This document shows, one piece after another, positions 56,266 through 63,315 of a stretch of 64,000 nucleotides of DNA. Source of the stretch: Candidatus Lustribacter sp. (GTDB lineage: Bacteria; Vulcanimicrobiota; Vulcanimicrobiia; Vulcanimicrobiales; Vulcanimicrobiaceae); NCBI GenBank assembly GCA_965277805.1, contig OZ255842.1, positions 2,400,001-2,464,000 of the forward strand, in the 5' to 3' direction. A program made the position numbers and the translations under genes. The notes under the pieces are model-generated. The model was not told where the DNA came from. It searched no databases and saw only the letters and a program-made list of their open reading frames with translations. The stretch's first letter is position 1, and each line of letters opens with the position of its first letter.

Positions 56266-56340
56266 TGGAGCTGGCGGTCGGGATTGAACCGACGCTCTCG
56301 TCCTTACCAAGGACGTGCTTTACCACTAAGCTACGCCAGC
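56266..56340 (-). tRNA. tRNA-Thr(GGT)
   Basis: GCTGGCG...CGTCC-TTGGTAA-GGACG...GGTTCAATC...CGCCAGCTCCA; intact, no intron. Confidence 0.97.
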
Positions 56341-56822: not shown

Positions 56823-56963
56823 TGCAAATATTCTCGCAAATTGCTGTGCCTACTGGTTGGCACTCACGCGGTGCAATAGCGCTTTTCGCGCTTAAAGGAG
56901 TCCGACGTACCGACCGACTAGACCCCACTAACGGAAGAAACCACTACCGGAGACGGGGTTCGC

Positions 56964-58916
56964 ATGGCAAAGAAAGATTCGGGCGGCGTTGACAGACGCG
57001 CGTTTTTAGGCGGAATCGGTGCTGCGGGAGCCGCCGCAGCGGCGGTGGCGGGAGTAAAACCCACACCGGCCGAGGCCAAACCCACGGCCCTGCCGCCCGT
57101 CTCCCAGTCGTATGCGACGACGATCGCGCAACTGGAGCAGGCGCCCCCGATCGATCACGGCCCCGGCGCCGATGCGCAGCACATCACGAATCCCGGCTCG
57201 GACTACATGGTCGACGTCTTGATGGCGCTCGGCTACAAGTACGTCGCCGCAACGCCCGGCACCACGTTCCGCGGACTCCAAGAATCGGTCATCAATTACG
57301 CCCAAGGCAAGATGGAGTGGCTCTCGTGCGCGCACGAAGAGATCTCCGGATCGATGGCCCACGGCTACGCCAAAGCGGCCGGTAAGCCCATGATCATCAT
57401 GGTGCACAACACCGTCGGCCTGCAGCACGCGTCGATGGCGATGTACAACTGCTGGGCCGACCGCGTGCCGATGCTGGTAATGCTCGGGAACTACGCCGAC
57501 GGCGCGCTGCGCTCGAGCGCCGCCGACTGGGATCACGCCATGCTCGACAACGCCGCGATGGTCCGCGGCTACATCAAGTACGACGAGCAGCCGGGATCGC
57601 TGCAGCACTACAAAGAGTCGATGCTGCGCGGACACGGCTTGATGATGACCGCACCGAGCGGCCCGATCGTCATGGTCTGCGATCAGACGCTGCAAGAAGA
57701 CACCGCGTCGCGCAAGCCGCAGCCGGCGATGCCGGCCTACGTTGCGGCAACGCAGCCGGCGCCCGATCCGGGCGCGATCAAACAGATTGCCCAGATGCTG
57801 GTTACGGCGAAGAATCCCGTCATCGTCGCCGATCGCGCGACGCGCTCGCAAGCCGACGTCCAGAATCTCGTCAAACTCGCCGAGGCGCTGCAAGTTCCGG
57901 TGATCGACAAGCTGGGCCGGATGAACTTCCCGACCACGCACTACCTCAACGGCGCGGGCGGCCTGACCGCCGAAGCCGACTTGATCCTCGCACTCGATCC
58001 CGGCGACTTGTCGAGTTACGTCGAGCGCCTGCCCGAGTCGATCGCGCGCAGCACGATTCGCACCGCGCGCCCGGATTGCAAAGTCATCTCGATCGACTCC
58101 GAATTGCTGGCCGACGCCGGAAACTTTCAGGATAAGCAGCGCTTCTATCAGGCCGACCTTCCGGTCGCCGCCGACTCCGCGACGACGTTGCCGTTCCTCA
58201 TCGAAGCGGTGAACAGCGCGATGTCGACCGCGCGCCGCAACGAGAACCCGCAACGCGAAGCGCGTCAGCGCGAAGCCTACTACATCAAGCGTCAGGCCGA
58301 CGCGGCCTACGCCGCGGTCGCCTGGGATTCGCAGCCGATCAGCGTCGCGCGCATGTGCATGGAGATCTGGAATCAGATCAAGGGCGACCCGTGGTCGGTC
58401 GTCTCGTCGACGGGCTTCCAGAGTAACTGGCCGGCGCGCCTGTGGGACTTCACCGATTACAGCCAATACCACGGCGGCTCGGGCGCCGCGGGCATCGGGT
58501 ACATCGGCGGCGCCGCGATCGGCTGCGCGCTCGCACATAAAGACAACGGCGGGGCCGTGTGCGTCAGCTTCCAAGGCGACGGCGACTTCATGATGGGCCC
58601 CGGCGCGATGTGGACCGCTGCGCATCACCGCATTCCGCTCTTGATGGTGATCCACAACAATCGCGCTTGGTACCAAGAAACGATGTCGGTCCAAATTCTC
58701 GCATCGCGGCGCGACCGTCATCCCGATCGCGGGCGCATCGGCACCGAGATCGTCGATCCGAACATCAACTACGCCAAGGTCGCGGAAGGCTTCGGCGTTT
58801 ACGCCGAGCCGCAGATCACGCATCCGGACCAGCTTGCACCGGCGATCGCACGGGCGCTCAAAGTGGTCAAGAGCGGTCATCCTGCGTTGCTCGACATCGT
58901 GTCGCAAGGGAGATGA
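56964..58916 (+). CDS. ThDP-binding enzyme with twin-arginine signal peptide
   Basis: VDRRAFLGGIGAAGAAAAAVAG...AEA; CAHEE catalytic Glu; QGDGDFM...NN ThDP motif. Confidence 0.92.
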   Translation: MAKKDSGGVDRRAFLGGIGAAGAAAAAVAGVKPTPAEAKPTALPPVSQSYATTIAQLEQAPPIDHGPGADAQHITNPGSDYMVDVLMALGYKYVAATPGTTFRGLQESVINYAQGKMEWLSCAHEEISGSMAHGYAKAAGKPMIIMVHNTVGLQHASMAMYNCWADRVPMLVMLGNYADGALRSSAADWDHAMLDNAAMVRGYIKYDEQPGSLQHYKESMLRGHGLMMTAPSGPIVMVCDQTLQEDTASRKPQPAMPAYVAATQPAPDPGAIKQIAQMLVTAKNPVIVADRATRSQADVQNLVKLAEALQVPVIDKLGRMNFPTTHYLNGAGGLTAEADLILALDPGDLSSYVERLPESIARSTIRTARPDCKVISIDSELLADAGNFQDKQRFYQADLPVAADSATTLPFLIEAVNSAMSTARRNENPQREARQREAYYIKRQADAAYAAVAWDSQPISVARMCMEIWNQIKGDPWSVVSSTGFQSNWPARLWDFTDYSQYHGGSGAAGIGYIGGAAIGCALAHKDNGGAVCVSFQGDGDFMMGPGAMWTAAHHRIPLLMVIHNNRAWYQETMSVQILASRRDRHPDRGRIGTEIVDPNINYAKVAEGFGVYAEPQITHPDQLAPAIARALKVVKSGHPALLDIVSQGR

Positions 58917-59554
58917 GCATGTTGCGCTTCAAAACGCTCGCAATCGCCTCGTTCGTCGCCGCCGCGCTCGCCGGGGCGGGCGTGCTCTCGGCCCAGACGA
59001 CCGCCCCTGCCGGCGACGCCAAACACGGCTATCAGCTCTTCCAAGTGAACGGCTGTTATGAATGCCACAACACGCTCGGTCAAGGCACCGGCAGCCGCGC
59101 TCCCGGCGCGGGTCCGGGACCGAACCTCGCGCCCGGACCGATTCCGTACGCCGCGTTCGTGCGCCAAGTGCGCAACCCGCGTCAATCGATGCCGCCCTAC
59201 GATGCGAAACTGGTCAGCGATCAGGACCTGGCCGACATGTACGCCTTCCTGGCGTCGCAGCCGCCGGCGAAAGATCCGCACACCATCGCGGTGCTGAACA
59301 ACGTCACGGCCGGAACGGCAACGAGCACCCCGCACGGCGCCGTCCTCTACGCCGCCAACTGCGCAACCTGTCACGGCGCGAGCGGACAAGGCGGCGTGGG
59401 CCCGGCACTGCGCAACGAAAGCTCAAAGAAAGATGCAGCCGCGGTGGCAGCGTTCGTCCGCAACCCGTCCGGCATCATGCCCAAGCTCAGTCCCGGCATG
59501 CTCAGCGCCAGCGACGTTACCGCCGTATCAGCGTACGTCGAAACGCTGCACTAG
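58913..59554 (+). CDS. Diheme c-type cytochrome
   Basis: Sec signal peptide; CYECH and CATCH; distal Met candidates in SMPP and IMPK; ATGA overlap with the upstream gene. Confidence 0.92.
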   Translation: MSMLRFKTLAIASFVAAALAGAGVLSAQTTAPAGDAKHGYQLFQVNGCYECHNTLGQGTGSRAPGAGPGPNLAPGPIPYAAFVRQVRNPRQSMPPYDAKLVSDQDLADMYAFLASQPPAKDPHTIAVLNNVTAGTATSTPHGAVLYAANCATCHGASGQGGVGPALRNESSKKDAAAVAAFVRNPSGIMPKLSPGMLSASDVTAVSAYVETLH

Positions 59555-59566
59555 CGCCGGGTCCGT

Positions 59567-60127
59567 CTATTTCGCGACGGCTGTTTCCGGCTCATGAAGC
59601 GAACGCAGCAGGCCGCTGAGGACTGCTGCCTTCGATTCCTCCGGTGCCGCATGATAGACGGAATATGACGCATCCAGCGTGTGCTTTAGCCATTCGTCCT
59701 TCAGCCGGCGCGAATCATCCGAGACTTCGTTGGCCGTACCCGAGACCGGGCGCAAATAGCCGTCGATCTTTCCGAGATCGAGTAACCGCAAAATCGTGAA
59801 CTCGCAGGACGGCCGCTGGTAGACGTTGCGGCGCGAGTTCAACTCGGTCAATTTACGCCGCTCGCGCAGCAAGAACCCGTAACGTTCGAGGACCGAAATT
59901 GCGCCGAACACGATCGAAAGGCTCGAGAGCCGGAGGTCGTTGCGGATCTGCTTCGTCGTGGGGTGACAGACGTTCGTCTCACATGCCAGCATGGTCAGAT
60001 AAAGATAGATGCTGACTTGGCGCGGATTAAGGACGTGGTACAGAAAACCGCTCATCCACGCCGGCACTTCCGCATAGGGCTGACAATTCTCAAAGCAATT
60101 TTTGGAATCGATTAGCGGGACAGACAA
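59567..60127 (-). CDS. Winged-helix (HTH_36-like) hypothetical protein
   Basis: VSIYLYL...CHPTTKQI...AISVLERYGFL...RNVY pattern; TTG start. Confidence 0.6.
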   Translation of the reverse strand: MSVPLIDSKNCFENCQPYAEVPAWMSGFLYHVLNPRQVSIYLYLTMLACETNVCHPTTKQIRNDLRLSSLSIVFGAISVLERYGFLLRERRKLTELNSRRNVYQRPSCEFTILRLLDLGKIDGYLRPVSGTANEVSDDSRRLKDEWLKHTLDASYSVYHAAPEESKAAVLSGLLRSLHEPETAVAK

Positions 60128-61232: not shown

Positions 61233-62285
61233 CTACGACACGGGTCCACTCGGCGGTTGCGGCGTGGGCGTCGGTGAGGGCTTGGGCGTTGGAACCGGTG
61301 TCGGTTTCGGCGTAGGCGCGAGCGTCGGGACCGGGGTCGGCGCGGGCGCCGATGTCGGTGCGATCGACGGCGCAGCGGTAGGTGCCGGCGTTTTGCCGCC
61401 GCCGCCGGTCGGCGTCGGTACGGGCGTCGGGGCCGCGCTCGGCGCGCTTGTCGGTACGGTCGAAGGCGACGGCGTCGGTGCTTTGCCGGTTGCGATGGCA
61501 GACGGCGTCGGTGCGGGCGTCGGAACGAACGGCGGTTGCGAGGGCACGGGCACGGGCGCGCCGGCGCCGCTATTGCAATTTGCGGTGAACGACAGCGGCG
61601 AGCGATCGAGGGCGGCGAGCGGTTGGGTCGCGCCCGCAGCCGAGCCGTCCGTCGCCGGTTCGAGCGATGCGGTAACGACGGCACTGAGCTGCGGCGAACA
61701 ATGCAAGAGCGATGAAAGGTCGGGCGAGCGGTAAAACGGCATCGATCGGCTGAGCGTGTGGGTGCCTAACGCGGCCGCGCCGGGCAGCACGCCCGAGAAG
61801 TTGGCGCTGACTTCGGCCGTTACGACCGGGGCTTGCGTCAACAAAAGATATTCGCGCGTGTAACCGTTTGTGAGATCGACGCGCACGGGTGTCGTGCATG
61901 CAACCGTCACGCTCGTTGGTAAGAAAAACGCGCCGAATTCCGCCGGTGTCGACGCGGTACCCGGCACCGTAGCGATCGAGCCCCCTTTGAGGAAGCCGTT
62001 GTTCGGAATTGCGCACGGCTGCGTCGGTACGTTGCTCATACCGTTGAGATTATTATAAAGCGTGTACAGACTATAATCGAGATACGGGTTCTGCTGCTGT
62101 TGCAGAACGCCCGCGTATCGCACGACCTCCTCGCTGCGCTCGGTGACGACGCCCACGCGGATCCCCCACACGACCGCGTACAGCGCGCCGAGGAGCACGG
62201 GCAGGACGAGAGCGGTTTCCAGCAAGGCCGCGCCGCGTTGGCGGTGGTATCGCGATTTCACGTTAGCTGCATCCCAATTCGGCAT
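61233..62285 (-). CDS. TadE-family pseudopilin with Pro/Thr/Ala-rich C-terminal tail
   Basis: QRGAALLETALVLPVL prepilin cleavage motif (G|xxxxE); PTP repeats in the tail. Confidence 0.85.
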   Translation of the reverse strand: MPNWDAANVKSRYHRQRGAALLETALVLPVLLGALYAVVWGIRVGVVTERSEEVVRYAGVLQQQQNPYLDYSLYTLYNNLNGMSNVPTQPCAIPNNGFLKGGSIATVPGTASTPAEFGAFFLPTSVTVACTTPVRVDLTNGYTREYLLLTQAPVVTAEVSANFSGVLPGAAALGTHTLSRSMPFYRSPDLSSLLHCSPQLSAVVTASLEPATDGSAAGATQPLAALDRSPLSFTANCNSGAGAPVPVPSQPPFVPTPAPTPSAIATGKAPTPSPSTVPTSAPSAAPTPVPTPTGGGGKTPAPTAAPSIAPTSAPAPTPVPTLAPTPKPTPVPTPKPSPTPTPQPPSGPVS

Positions 62286-63315
62286 CGCTCTGCGGCCCGG
62301 TCCAGGGGTGAATCGGGACGGAATTCCACCAGCCTAATTGCGCGCTGAACTCGTCGGTGAACAAGCCGGCGCGATAGAAATTCAACGTGGCATTCGCCGC
62401 GGTTGCGTTACCGCCGAAGCTGAGGTTGTACCAGTCGTAATTGTCGGGATGCACCACGCCGTTGACGTTGGTCTCCGGCGGCTGGAACGGCAAACCGTTG
62501 CTGAACGGGTTGACGATCACGCCGGGCTGCAGCCAATCTTCTTCCATCATGACCGCGGTCGCGGCACCGCGCCCGATCGCATGATACGGCTTGGGCTGAT
62601 AACCGAAAAATCCCGGAATGACGGGCGCAACCGTGGTGCACACATCGACTTCAACCTTGAGCGGTGCGAAAAGCGACGGATTCACGCCCGATGGACCCGT
62701 GAGGCGCCCGAGCGAGGGCTTGAGGATGCCGAGGGCGTCCATCTCAACGGCTTGCGTATCGTCGCGCGTGCCGACGGTCACCTTATAGTGAAAGTTGCAA
62801 TCGCCGCCGGCAGCTCCGTTGCAATCGCTGCCGATCTGTCCGATCAGGGCCTGCGAGTCGGCGCTCAGGTTCGTGTAGTTGAGTGATGCGGTGATCCGGT
62901 TGAGCGTTGTGACGTCTTGCGTATAGCGAGCGACGGACTTGAAATAGTCATCGCGCAAGCCTGCATACACGGCGTCGCAGGCCGGAACATCCGTACCGGG
63001 TGCGGGTGCCGGATTGGGGGCGCAGCCGCCGGCGTTGTATTCGGCCAGCACGATGCCTTGCAGCAAGCGCCGCAGACGGTACTCCTCGACCGCCGACGCG
63101 TAGAGCACGGCGGTCATCTGGTTGAAATCTTCGGTCTGCAGTGAAAGCACGGCTTGAGCGGCCGAATCGGCTGCGTTTTGCGCCCGCAGCTGCCACCGGA
63201 TTCCGTTGCCGAAATCGAGGGCGAAATAGGCAAAGATCAGCATAACGATGATGCCGAACACCGATAGCGGTAACGCTTGGCCGCGCTGCGCGTGCTGGTT
63301 GTCACGGTCCGACAT
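62263..63315 (-). CDS. Tad-domain (TadG-like) pilus assembly protein
   Basis: QRGQALP, TM, DFG...RAQNAADSAA. Confidence 0.85.
   Translation of the reverse strand: MSDRDNQHAQRGQALPLSVFGIIVMLIFAYFALDFGNGIRWQLRAQNAADSAAQAVLSLQTEDFNQMTAVLYASAVEEYRLRRLLQGIVLAEYNAGGCAPNPAPAPGTDVPACDAVYAGLRDDYFKSVARYTQDVTTLNRITASLNYTNLSADSQALIGQIGSDCNGAAGGDCNFHYKVTVGTRDDTQAVEMDALGILKPSLGRLTGPSGVNPSLFAPLKVEVDVCTTVAPVIPGFFGYQPKPYHAIGRGAATAVMMEEDWLQPGVIVNPFSNGLPFQPPETNVNGVVHPDNYDWYNLSFGGNATAANATLNFYRAGLFTDEFSAQLGWWNSVPIHPWTGPQSDAELGCS

Follow-up and report, generated by a model that had tools for sequence, protein, structure and literature searches.

A conserved gene pair for a putatively exported thiamine diphosphate enzyme and its dedicated c-type cytochrome

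In a 64,000-nucleotide stretch of the genome of Candidatus Lustribacter sp. (hereafter called the window), a gene for a thiamine diphosphate (ThDP) enzyme bearing a twin-arginine signal is directly followed by a gene for a c-type cytochrome. This pair is a conserved two-gene module, and not a single occurrence. On balance, and with modest confidence, we believe that the pair functions as an extracytoplasmic ThDP-dependent 2-oxoacid (or aldehyde):cytochrome c oxidoreductase, which would feed the aerobic respiratory chain without using a flavin. Within this proposal, we infer the cofactor content, the class of substrate, an oxidative reaction, and the route along which the electrons flow. All of the window coordinates below are on the forward (+) strand.

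How general is this gene arrangement? We selected 85 related loci, containing 91 ThDP genes, by the similarity of the ThDP enzyme alone. The original prediction had named the conservation of the cytochrome neighbor as a check on itself, and a homologous cytochrome c gene does adjoin the ThDP gene in 82 of the 84 cases in which the flanking sequence extends for 400 nt or more. The cytochrome gene lies directly 3′ on the same strand in 80 of these 84 ThDP genes, and the gap between the two genes is 31 nt or less in 79/84 pairs. Beyond the 80, locus L036 has a downstream cytochrome c gene and that of L031 is encoded on the other strand at a distance of about 500 nt, while no cytochrome was found within 2.2 kb in L053 or within 1.45 kb in L078. 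Since the twin-arginine signal (described below) and the cytochrome pairing are both conserved in the relatives, neither is a chance feature of the window. The clustering of 1731 neighboring frames from 86 sequences revealed no third conserved neighbor gene, as the largest cluster is present at only 7 of the 85 loci. The small neighbor families include an NMT1/THI5-like binding protein, Amidohydro_2, a PurK synteny, and a TonB-type barrel, and the neighbor clusters of the 85 loci provided no clue to the substrate. The context in Caballeronia (citrate synthase, porin, MFS, and LysR) is uninformative about the substrate as well. One 892-residue ThDP–cytochrome fusion protein (P0326) was set aside as an assembly artefact, rather than a Rosetta-stone fusion, because a short shared ALL...LS stretch joins the two genes and the source is a read-assembly catalogue; no proteins of fusion length were found among the best 120 or 150 matches.

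In the window, the ThDP gene (56964..58916; P0001, from the ORF translation and Pfam) is preceded by a Shine-Dalgarno-like GGAGA (56949..56953), read from the sequence 10 nt upstream of its start. The cytochrome gene (58913..59554; P0002, 213 amino acids, from the ORF and Pfam) begins at the earliest within the stop of the ThDP gene, where the two share an ATGA (58913..58916). A Shine-Dalgarno-like AAGGGAG (58906..58912) within the end of the ThDP gene is spaced 0 nt from this first ATG, and 6 nt from a second, in-frame ATG at 58919. The latter may be the true cytochrome start, and in that case the genes are 2 nt apart and do not overlap by 4. Therefore, the tight coupling read from the ATGA in the original prediction holds at the level of the sequence, whichever start is used, but its 4-nt overlap is not certain.

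The ThDP enzyme comprises 650 amino acids, with three Pfam domains that each score above the gathering cut-off: the PYR (N-terminal ThDP) domain (residues 78–183, 57195..57512; TPP_enzyme_N, PF02776, 74.8 bits), the middle domain (residues 272–409, 57777..58190; TPP_enzyme_M, PF00205, 36 bits), and the PP (C-terminal ThDP) domain (residues 484–645, 58413..58898; TPP_enzyme_C, PF02775, 82.8 bits). The PP domain contains the GDG...NN Mg-ThDP motif (residues 538–566, 58575–58661). H124-E125-E126 and G538-D539-G540...N565-N566 are invariant in 31/31 aligned homologues, as are H148, T100/T101, and E107 of the PYR domain, with E125 as the activating glutamate. The three domains, the activating glutamate, and the GDG-x(24–27)-NN spacing place the protein in the decarboxylase (POX/AHAS/BFD) fold, in agreement with the ThDP-family enzyme first recognized here from its HEE and GDG...NN motifs.

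The N-terminal 38 residues (56964..57077) form a twin-arginine signal peptide, assigned from the NCBI model TIGR01409 and the conserved motif, with the cleavage site placed by eye. R11-R12 (56994–56999, read from the sequence) lie in the n-region, and are followed by a Gly/Ala-rich h-region and a c-region running from K32 to A-E-A. This layout agrees with the pattern of Tat substrates, namely an (S/T)RRxFLK-like motif, an h-region of weak hydrophobicity, and a basic c-region. On TIGR01409 TAT_signal_seq, the N-terminal sequence MAKKDSGGVDRRAFLGGIGAAGAAAAAVAGVKPTPAEA reaches 24.8 bits, above the cut-off of 16.7, and on Pfam TAT_signal only 12.8 bits, below the cut-off of 22.7. A Pro-rich linker (residues 39–71, 57078..57176) connects the signal to the catalytic core. 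It was delimited by low pLDDT in the structure model (below 50 at residues 1–46 and 60–71) and by the start of the signal-less relatives, which aligns to about residue 75. The twin arginine is retained in 103 of the 119 homologues listed (the remainder being 7 single-Arg sequences, 2 unclear starts, and 7 truncated sequences), and in 78/79 complete N-termini among the 91 ThDP genes of the 85 loci. Thus the signal, judged clear in the original prediction, passes both the TIGR01409 model and the test of conservation proposed for it. In a minority of the homologues, a single arginine (RG, RS, RQ, or RW) replaces the expected pair, as in the fourth paralogue of this genome (GRGGFL) and locus L005 (SRSSFL), so the Tat targeting of the family may not be universal. 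This genome encodes TatC (168.3 bits, G000:C1:4666207-4666830), and with both the signal and the Tat machinery present, we infer that the enzyme is exported outside the cytoplasm.

Which known enzymes does the core resemble? The best NCBIfam match is to the NF006203/PRK08327 type, with 256.8 bits, below the cut-off of 456 for membership. These signal-less “thiamine pyrophosphate-requiring proteins” are the nearest relatives by sequence (30–38% identity, full-length from about residue 77), and share the PGxxFRGL insert and a long helix with the exported clade, but lack its signal and linker. To our knowledge, their function is uncharacterized. The best sequence and profile matches are the FAD-free enzymes related to benzoylformate decarboxylase (BFD), which have the same three-domain fold (PDB 4q9d and 1bfd; Foldseek TM 0.66–0.70 over the query and 0.8 over the target). 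In the alignment, E125 falls on E47 of BFD and H148 on H70, and the equivalents of E47, H70, S26, and E28 are conserved in the exported family. We take these four residues and H281 to have catalytic roles in BFD; the position of H281 is not histidine in the exported enzyme. The identity to BFD is only 16–20%, and the BFD model NF005485 gives 138.2 bits against a cut-off of 493, which leaves the enzyme outside the BFD family. Moreover, BFD itself is cytoplasmic, non-oxidative, and without a cytochrome partner, whereas the exported family adds the signal and linker, four inserted residues (FRGL) following PGS/T, and the long helix 422–451.

In comparison with the AHAS of the same genome, the middle domain has VADRAT in place of AGGGA and DPGDLSSY in place of RFDDR. 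The Gly-rich loop and RFDDR are presumably the FAD-contact motifs of AHAS, and both are replaced in the exported family and in its signal-less relatives; the AHAS model TIGR00118 yields 118.9 bits versus a cut-off of 538, and the enzyme is not an AHAS. Because these two motifs are missing and the enzyme resembles BFD, it probably lacks FAD. The ThDP motifs of the “ThDP/FAD” enzyme originally envisaged are thus present, but its flavin is probably absent. Could a flavin or another relay nevertheless operate in the middle domain, with the same architecture and electron flow (ThDP to FAD to heme), as in pyruvate oxidase/PoxB? The middle domain does exist (TPP_enzyme_M, 36 bits), the top structural matches include two enzymes that bind FAD, glyoxylate carboligase and AHAS, and all of the characterized non-Fe-S ThDP oxidases of this fold that we know of use FAD. 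However, the replacement of both contact motifs across the family and its signal-less relatives, the FAD-free nature of the best profile matches, and the AHAS and pyruvate oxidase scores far below their cut-offs (NF006377, 89.3 bits versus 742, with no FAD motifs, so that the enzyme is not a pyruvate oxidase/PoxB) make such a relay unlikely. Pyruvate oxidase/PoxB (pyruvate:quinone oxidoreductase) and other oxidative ThDP enzymes parallel the chemistry that we propose for the flavin-free pair, namely the oxidative decarboxylation of a 2-oxoacid via hydroxyalkyl-ThDP, with the electrons passing to the respiratory chain. In contrast to the pair, with its export signal, heme c as the proposed acceptor, and no FAD motifs, PoxB and POX are found in the cytoplasm or peripherally at the inner face, contain FAD, and deliver electrons to quinone or O2.

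The cytochrome has a putative Sec-type signal peptide (residues 1–27, 58913..58993), read by eye as ending in VLSA before a glutamine. Two CxxCH motifs (residues 48–52 and 150–154) and the Pfam matches (Cytochrome_CBB3, PF13442, 90.2 bits versus a cut-off of 27; PF00034, 65.9 bits) identify the protein; with CxxCH, a distal methionine, and the Sec signal read by eye, it has the features of a class I c-type cytochrome. Heme domain 1 (residues 33–130, 59009..59302) is the conserved partner domain, according to its invariant columns, the predicted interface, and its distribution in the genome. It contains C48-x-x-C51-H52 (59054–59068), the axial M93, and an I-x-x-L-N tail with the invariant L128; C48, C51, H52, and M93 are invariant across the 28 aligned partner cytochromes. 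Heme domain 2 (residues 138–213, 59324..59551), with C150-x-x-C153-H154 (59360–59374), is a lineage-specific extra domain. It is absent from the 21 monoheme members of the 28 aligned partners, and resembles the cytochrome c adjoining a COX1 gene in the same genome (G000:C1:3038338-3038646). Because 58 of the 81 complete partner cytochromes are monoheme, only one heme domain belongs to the conserved partner and the diheme state is a feature of the lineage; the secreted cytochrome with two CxxCH motifs described originally stands at this locus, but not family-wide.

No NCBIfam cytochrome model reached its cut-off, and the PedF, SorU, and c551 models matched weakly. These weak matches support a logic shared with the periplasmic pairs of PQQ alcohol dehydrogenase and cytochrome c550, the SorAB/SorU sulfite dehydrogenase, and the flavoprotein–cytochrome c sugar dehydrogenases, in which an extracytoplasmic, cofactor-loaded dehydrogenase passes electrons through an adjacent, dedicated class I cytochrome c to an oxidase. 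The catalytic cofactor here is ThDP, in contrast to PQQ, molybdopterin, or FAD in those pairs.

In order to examine the association of the two proteins, we ran a complex prediction together with controls. A single protomer of the enzyme was included, whereas enzymes of this type form dimers and have their active site where the two protomers meet. The prediction gave an ipSAE of 0.70 (0.72, 0.70, and 0.68 in the individual runs), as compared to 0.00 for the best control. The same mark was reached by 58/80 solved complexes and 2/110 mismatched pairs. The contacts agreed by at least 93% among the runs, and the pLDDT of the partner was at least 81. We know of no solved ThDP–cytochrome complex that the model could have memorized, and none is present among the PDB matches. 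In the predicted complex, heme domain 1 forms the interface, which includes the CxxCH loop, the Met93 loop, and the conserved tail, and sets the heme-binding face against the enzyme. The model thus supports the binding of the ThDP enzyme to its partner cytochrome. As a counterpoint, the long helix that serves as its docking surface on the enzyme is also present in the signal-less relatives.

These results also bear on the idea that the exported enzyme acts non-oxidatively, as a decarboxylase, lyase, or carboligase, and that the cytochrome is otherwise employed, in aldehyde oxidation via another enzyme, in redox regulation, or as a structural subunit. The closest relatives of known structure (BFD, benzaldehyde lyase, glyoxylate carboligase, and HKA synthase) are indeed non-oxidative, and the flavin motif is missing. 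Nevertheless, we consider this idea improbable: in this genome, matches to heme domain 1 with E ≤ 1e-5 occur only beside the four ThDP paralogues, and the heme domain partner is kept while the enzyme identity ranges from 42 to 96%. In addition, with the heme-binding loops against the enzyme in the predicted interface, electron transfer would fit better than a bystander role, and no conserved aldehyde dehydrogenase lies nearby at the 85 loci.

The genome of the window encodes four Tat-type ThDP paralogues, and a cytochrome c gene comes directly after every one of them. Together with the tandem pairs found elsewhere, these four pairs suggest that the family acts on several substrates. In the phylogenetic tree, the 19 rows with a signal group into one clade with an SH-aLRT of 100, and this clade lies within a set of 66 signal-less relatives, which shows a single origin of the putatively exported clade. 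The notion that the N-terminal region is a relic, or an anchor that stays uncleaved, and that a cytoplasmic enzyme is merely co-regulated with its neighbor, could draw on the single-Arg variants and the low Pfam TAT_signal score, but it is very hard to sustain, as TIGR01409 is passed, the signal and linker of about 70 residues are kept across phyla and define this one clade while the cytoplasmic relatives lack them, and an uncleaved anchor would place the enzyme outside all the same. Furthermore, the predicted complex needs an exported enzyme, because c-type cytochromes mature outside the cytoplasm. The family is large: relatives are encoded in at least 576 of the 600 candidate stretches listed from one metagenome scan. 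It is also common in soil phyla. Among 151 sampled genomes of the phylum of the window, with at most 8 candidates scored per genome, only 2 (including that of the window) have a Tat-type match with E ≤ 1e-120, so the distribution is patchy and not a trait of the phylum. Many database records name the exported family “acetolactate synthase large subunit”, an annotation that is almost certainly wrong.

Overall, the analysis supports the original prediction of a periplasmic ThDP-dependent dehydrogenase that would donate electrons to a dedicated c-type cytochrome. We propose the following mechanism for the pair as a flavin-free oxidoreductase. The ThDP enzyme would fold, dimerize, and bind Mg-ThDP in the cytoplasm, and then be exported in its folded form via Tat, while the cytochrome would be exported via Sec and acquire its heme outside the cytoplasm. 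The N-terminal heme domain would then dock at the side of the PP domain, with its heme-binding face toward the enzyme.

In the BFD-like active site, a 2-oxoacid (or, less likely, an aldehyde) would react with ThDP to yield CO2 and the hydroxyalkyl-ThDP enamine. This intermediate would not be protonated; rather, heme c would oxidize it in two one-electron steps, without a flavin, and the hydrolysis of the resulting acyl-ThDP would release the carboxylic acid. The electrons would flow to the second heme domain, or to a soluble cytochrome in the monoheme versions, and finally to cytochrome c oxidase. The genome has two COX1 genes, for heme-copper oxidases, and a gene for a protein of cytochrome c assembly.

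Our full-text searches of the literature found no description of an exported ThDP enzyme paired with a cytochrome c; the original prediction likewise knew of no characterized example. As far as we know, all characterized ThDP enzymes of this fold reside in the cytoplasm, or in the matrix or stroma of organelles, and its oxidative members donate electrons to FAD, lipoamide, or Fe-S clusters. The pair therefore looks like a new and widespread kind of respiratory dehydrogenase outside the cytoplasm, which is apparently unstudied. More tentatively, it could be the first extracytoplasmic class of ThDP enzymes and the first case of enamine oxidation directly by a c-type heme, without a flavin or iron-sulfur cluster. 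It might then allow soil and peat bacteria (Acidobacteriota, Pseudomonadota, Eremiobacterota, and Chloroflexota) to respire 2-oxoacids from their surroundings with no need for import, different acids being handled by specialized paralogues. The cultured carriers of the pair, in Caballeronia, Burkholderia, Rhizorhabdus, and Novosphingobium, are tractable and thus make a direct test of its function possible. Examples are LDZ23_RS29905 and LDZ23_RS29910 on plasmid p3 of Caballeronia zhejiangensis, and ABQ67889.1 and its neighbor in Rhizorhabdus wittichii RW1. If the proposal is true, then ThDP is a further cofactor that Tat is able to transport, the one-electron oxidation of the ThDP enamine gains a flavin-free system for its study, and the electrons of organic acids have a new entry point into aerobic respiratory chains.

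The ThDP enzyme is encoded by an open frame of 650 codons on the forward strand (56964-58916), and its product scores above the Pfam cut-offs for all three domains of the POX/AHAS/BFD type (AHAS, acetolactate synthase; BFD, benzoylformate decarboxylase). Across 31 aligned homologues there is no variation in the H124-E125 pair, with E125 as the cofactor-activating glutamate, or in the Mg-ThDP motif G538-D539-G540...N565-N566. Taken together with the domain matches, this conservation indicates that the protein is very probably a working ThDP enzyme. Residues 1-38 form a twin-arginine-like signal, MAKKDSGGVDRRAFLGGIGAAGAAAAAVAGVKPTPAEA, and the N-terminus passes the NCBI model TAT_signal_seq (24.8 bits, cut-off 16.7) and stays under the cut-off of Pfam's shorter TAT model. 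The original prediction of a Tat-type signal on a 650-residue ThDP-family enzyme is thus borne out. In the AlphaFold model (mean pLDDT 81), residues 1-46 and 60-71 are disordered, and the ordered core starts at about residue 75, the point at which signal-less relatives begin.

The TGA stop of this gene (58914-58916) shares bases with an ATG at 58913, from which 213 codons on the forward strand encode a cytochrome c with a Sec-like signal, two CxxCH motifs and passing matches to the Pfam cytochrome c models. The predicted stop/start overlap (ATGA) and the secreted-type cytochrome are therefore present, but the overlap itself is less certain: an in-frame ATG at 58919 is better spaced from the AAGGGAG element (58906-58912) than is the ATG at 58913, and translation may in fact begin there. 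The two genes are contiguous whichever ATG is used.

How might such an enzyme use a cytochrome? Among proteins of solved structure, BFD-like enzymes, glyoxylate carboligase and AHAS come closest (16-20% identity), and the top matches of a family-profile search are BFD-like, FAD-free enzymes. In the alignment with BFD, E125 falls on E47, the invariant H148 on H70, T100 on S26 and E107 on E28, while the position of H281 is occupied by a non-His residue; we take these BFD residues to be active-site positions. Compared with the AHAS of the same genome, the Gly-rich loop and RFDDR, presumably the FAD contacts, are replaced by VADRAT and DPGDLSSY, respectively, in both the signal-bearing family and its signal-less relatives. 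Because the profile matches are FAD-free and both FAD motifs are replaced, we favour an enzyme that lacks flavin and has a 2-oxoacid site like that of BFD, and consider a bound flavin of the kind used by the pyruvate oxidase PoxB improbable. We propose that the docked heme would take two electrons, one at a time, from the ThDP enamine intermediate, yielding acyl-ThDP and then the acid. One-electron acceptors can oxidise ThDP enamines, as in ferricyanide side reactions and the PFOR radical, and the thermodynamic drop to cytochrome c is large.

The conservation of signal and partner was examined in 85 loci (5 from species-representative genomes and 80 from metagenomes), chosen by similarity of the ThDP protein only (42-96% identity), with every frame screened by phmmer using both window proteins. 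The loci span, by record names, Eremiobacterota/Vulcanimicrobiota, Chloroflexota (Limnocylindria), Acidobacteriota and Pseudomonadota; they are mutually related, so the counts from the 91 ThDP gene matches (the frameshifted gene of locus L004 counted twice) are not independent trials. The RR pair, in the motif (V/I)(D/N/G/K)RRxF(L/I), occurs in 78 of 79 complete N-termini, the lone exception being SRSSFL in L005. An independent list, the best 119 database homologues, contains 103 with RR, 7 with only one Arg in that motif, 2 with doubtful starts and 7 truncated. A single Arg (RG, RS, RQ or RW) within an otherwise intact signal was seen in L005, in L090 (the fourth paralogous locus of the window's genome; 1692483-1694423 of the contig, reverse strand) and in the homologues P0041, P0050, P0051, P0056, P0061, P0081 and P0111. 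Of the 84 matches followed by 400 nt or more of sequence, 80 have a cytochrome c homologue directly 3' on the same strand; the gap is at most 31 nt in 79 of 84 pairs. In the remaining four, the gene is present but was missed by the script (L036), lies about 500 nt off on the opposite strand (L031), or is absent within 2.2 kb (L053) or 1.45 kb (L078). Locus L004 (6001-7954) belongs to a metagenome-assembled genome with 95% identity to the window; its ThDP gene is broken into overlapping frames of 583 and 187 aa, by either frameshift or assembly error, and its cytochrome gene is intact.

The partner was predicted to be diheme, which holds for the window protein but not generally: 58 of 81 complete partners are monoheme (about 111-193 aa) and 23 are diheme. 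The conserved unit is heme domain 1 (residues 33-130), with invariant G39, C48, C51, H52, G58, R87, M93, P94 and L128. Heme domain 2, which resembles a cytochrome c encoded next to a heme-copper oxidase gene in the same genome, is a lineage-specific addition.

We modelled mature enzyme (residues 72-650; a single protomer of the dimeric enzyme) with mature cytochrome (residues 29-213), each with its own alignment. Three runs gave ipSAE values of 0.72, 0.70 and 0.68, and all three controls gave 0.00; in a benchmark, 58 of 80 solved complexes attained the score mark, as did 2 of 110 mismatched pairs. At least 93% of contacts are common to the runs, with a partner pLDDT of at least 81. The predicted interface comprises cytochrome residues 45-61 (CxxCH loop), 91-100 (Met93 loop) and 116-137 (the conserved I-x-x-L-N tail), and enzyme residues 355-359, 433-470, 487-495, 570-588 and the C-terminus. 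To our knowledge no ThDP-cytochrome complex has been solved, and the PDB matches include none; template memory is therefore unlikely. The model supports binding of the two proteins to each other. As far as sequence analysis reaches, the original interpretation is supported, with a putative extracytoplasmic ThDP dehydrogenase that would pass electrons to a dedicated c-type cytochrome; a non-oxidative enzyme with the cytochrome as a bystander is an unlikely alternative reading of the pair.

Searching 1.84 billion representatives with the ThDP protein gave 8713 matches at E <= 1e-3. The best dozen or so bear the signal (at least 40% identity), and the next are signal-less proteins of 560-615 aa whose alignment begins only at about residue 77. 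A maximum-likelihood tree was built from 19 signal-bearing and 66 signal-less rows, with two distant paralogues from the same genome as outgroup, leaving out rows below 560 aa and eight partial rows (P0131, P0138, P0148, P0151, P0180, P0189, P0207 and P0211). Every signal-bearing protein falls in a single clade (SH-aLRT 100) nested inside the signal-less family, a topology that fits a single acquisition of export. A non-functional signal is the least likely of the three alternatives, and very improbable, because signal plus linker defines this clade, and only outside the cytoplasm can a c-type cytochrome meet its partner.

The gene is patchy within the window's phylum (2 of 151 sampled genomes, the window's own included). 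The window's genome (5.53 Mb, one contig) carries the Tat-type gene in four paralogous copies, every one with a cytochrome gene of this kind after it, and heme domain 1 finds matches at E <= 1e-5 only beside these four. It also encodes TatC (4666207-4666830 of the contig) and a cytochrome c assembly protein (4663784-4664548), on the same strand and less than 2 kb apart. The ThDP repertoire is unusually large: a ThDP-enzyme query matches 30 places, among them the four Tat-type copies and one signal-less close relative (2520473-2522140). Elsewhere, L014, L064, L067 and L077 contain tandem duplications of the pair, and L033 carries a truncated pair followed by a complete one. P0326 (892 aa, from a read-assembly catalogue), an apparent ThDP-cytochrome fusion, is probably chimeric, since its junction falls within a short shared stretch.

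There is no conserved third gene among the neighbours, the largest neighbour family occurring in 7 of 85 loci. About 700 nt 3' of the pair and convergent with it lies a gene for an NMT1/THI5-like periplasmic binding protein (PF09084; 60258-61196, reverse strand); in L090 a similar gene (105-1079 of that locus, reverse) comes after the cytochrome in the same orientation, separated from it by a short gap, and the family is present in 7 of the 85 loci. The protein might bind substrate or product, or reflect lineage synteny. Directly upstream of the module is a tRNA-Thr (GGT) gene (56266-56340, reverse), adjoined by a 163-aa PD-(D/E)XK endonuclease frame (PF11645; 56331-56822, reverse); directly downstream of the pair is a 186-aa frame without a Pfam match (59567-60127, reverse). 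The pair may occupy a small insertion-prone spot, against which the upstream context is common to the close relatives L001 and L004. Two 350-aa frames (61233-63315, reverse), one with a long Pro/Thr/Ala-rich tail as read by eye, have N-termini that, also by eye, we take to resemble TadE/TadG-type pilus assembly proteins.

The ThDP enzyme falls below the curated cut-off of every named NCBIfam family (PRK08327-type, 257 bits against 456; BFD, 138 against 493; AHAS, 119 against 538; pyruvate oxidase, 89 against 742), and public records name its homologues generically or as 'acetolactate synthase'. A full-text literature search, with most subscription journals and supplements outside its coverage, retrieved no publication describing a ThDP enzyme that is exported or linked to a cytochrome; the joining of ThDP oxidoreductase chemistry to the logic of a periplasmic dehydrogenase and its cytochrome c is not described in the literature found. 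Cultured carriers include Rhizorhabdus wittichii RW1, Burkholderia sp. SFA1, Novosphingobium and Caballeronia zhejiangensis, on whose plasmid p3 the pair is annotated as 'thiamine pyrophosphate-binding protein' and 'c-type cytochrome'. These cultured carriers make the proposed exported ThDP-cytochrome system testable.
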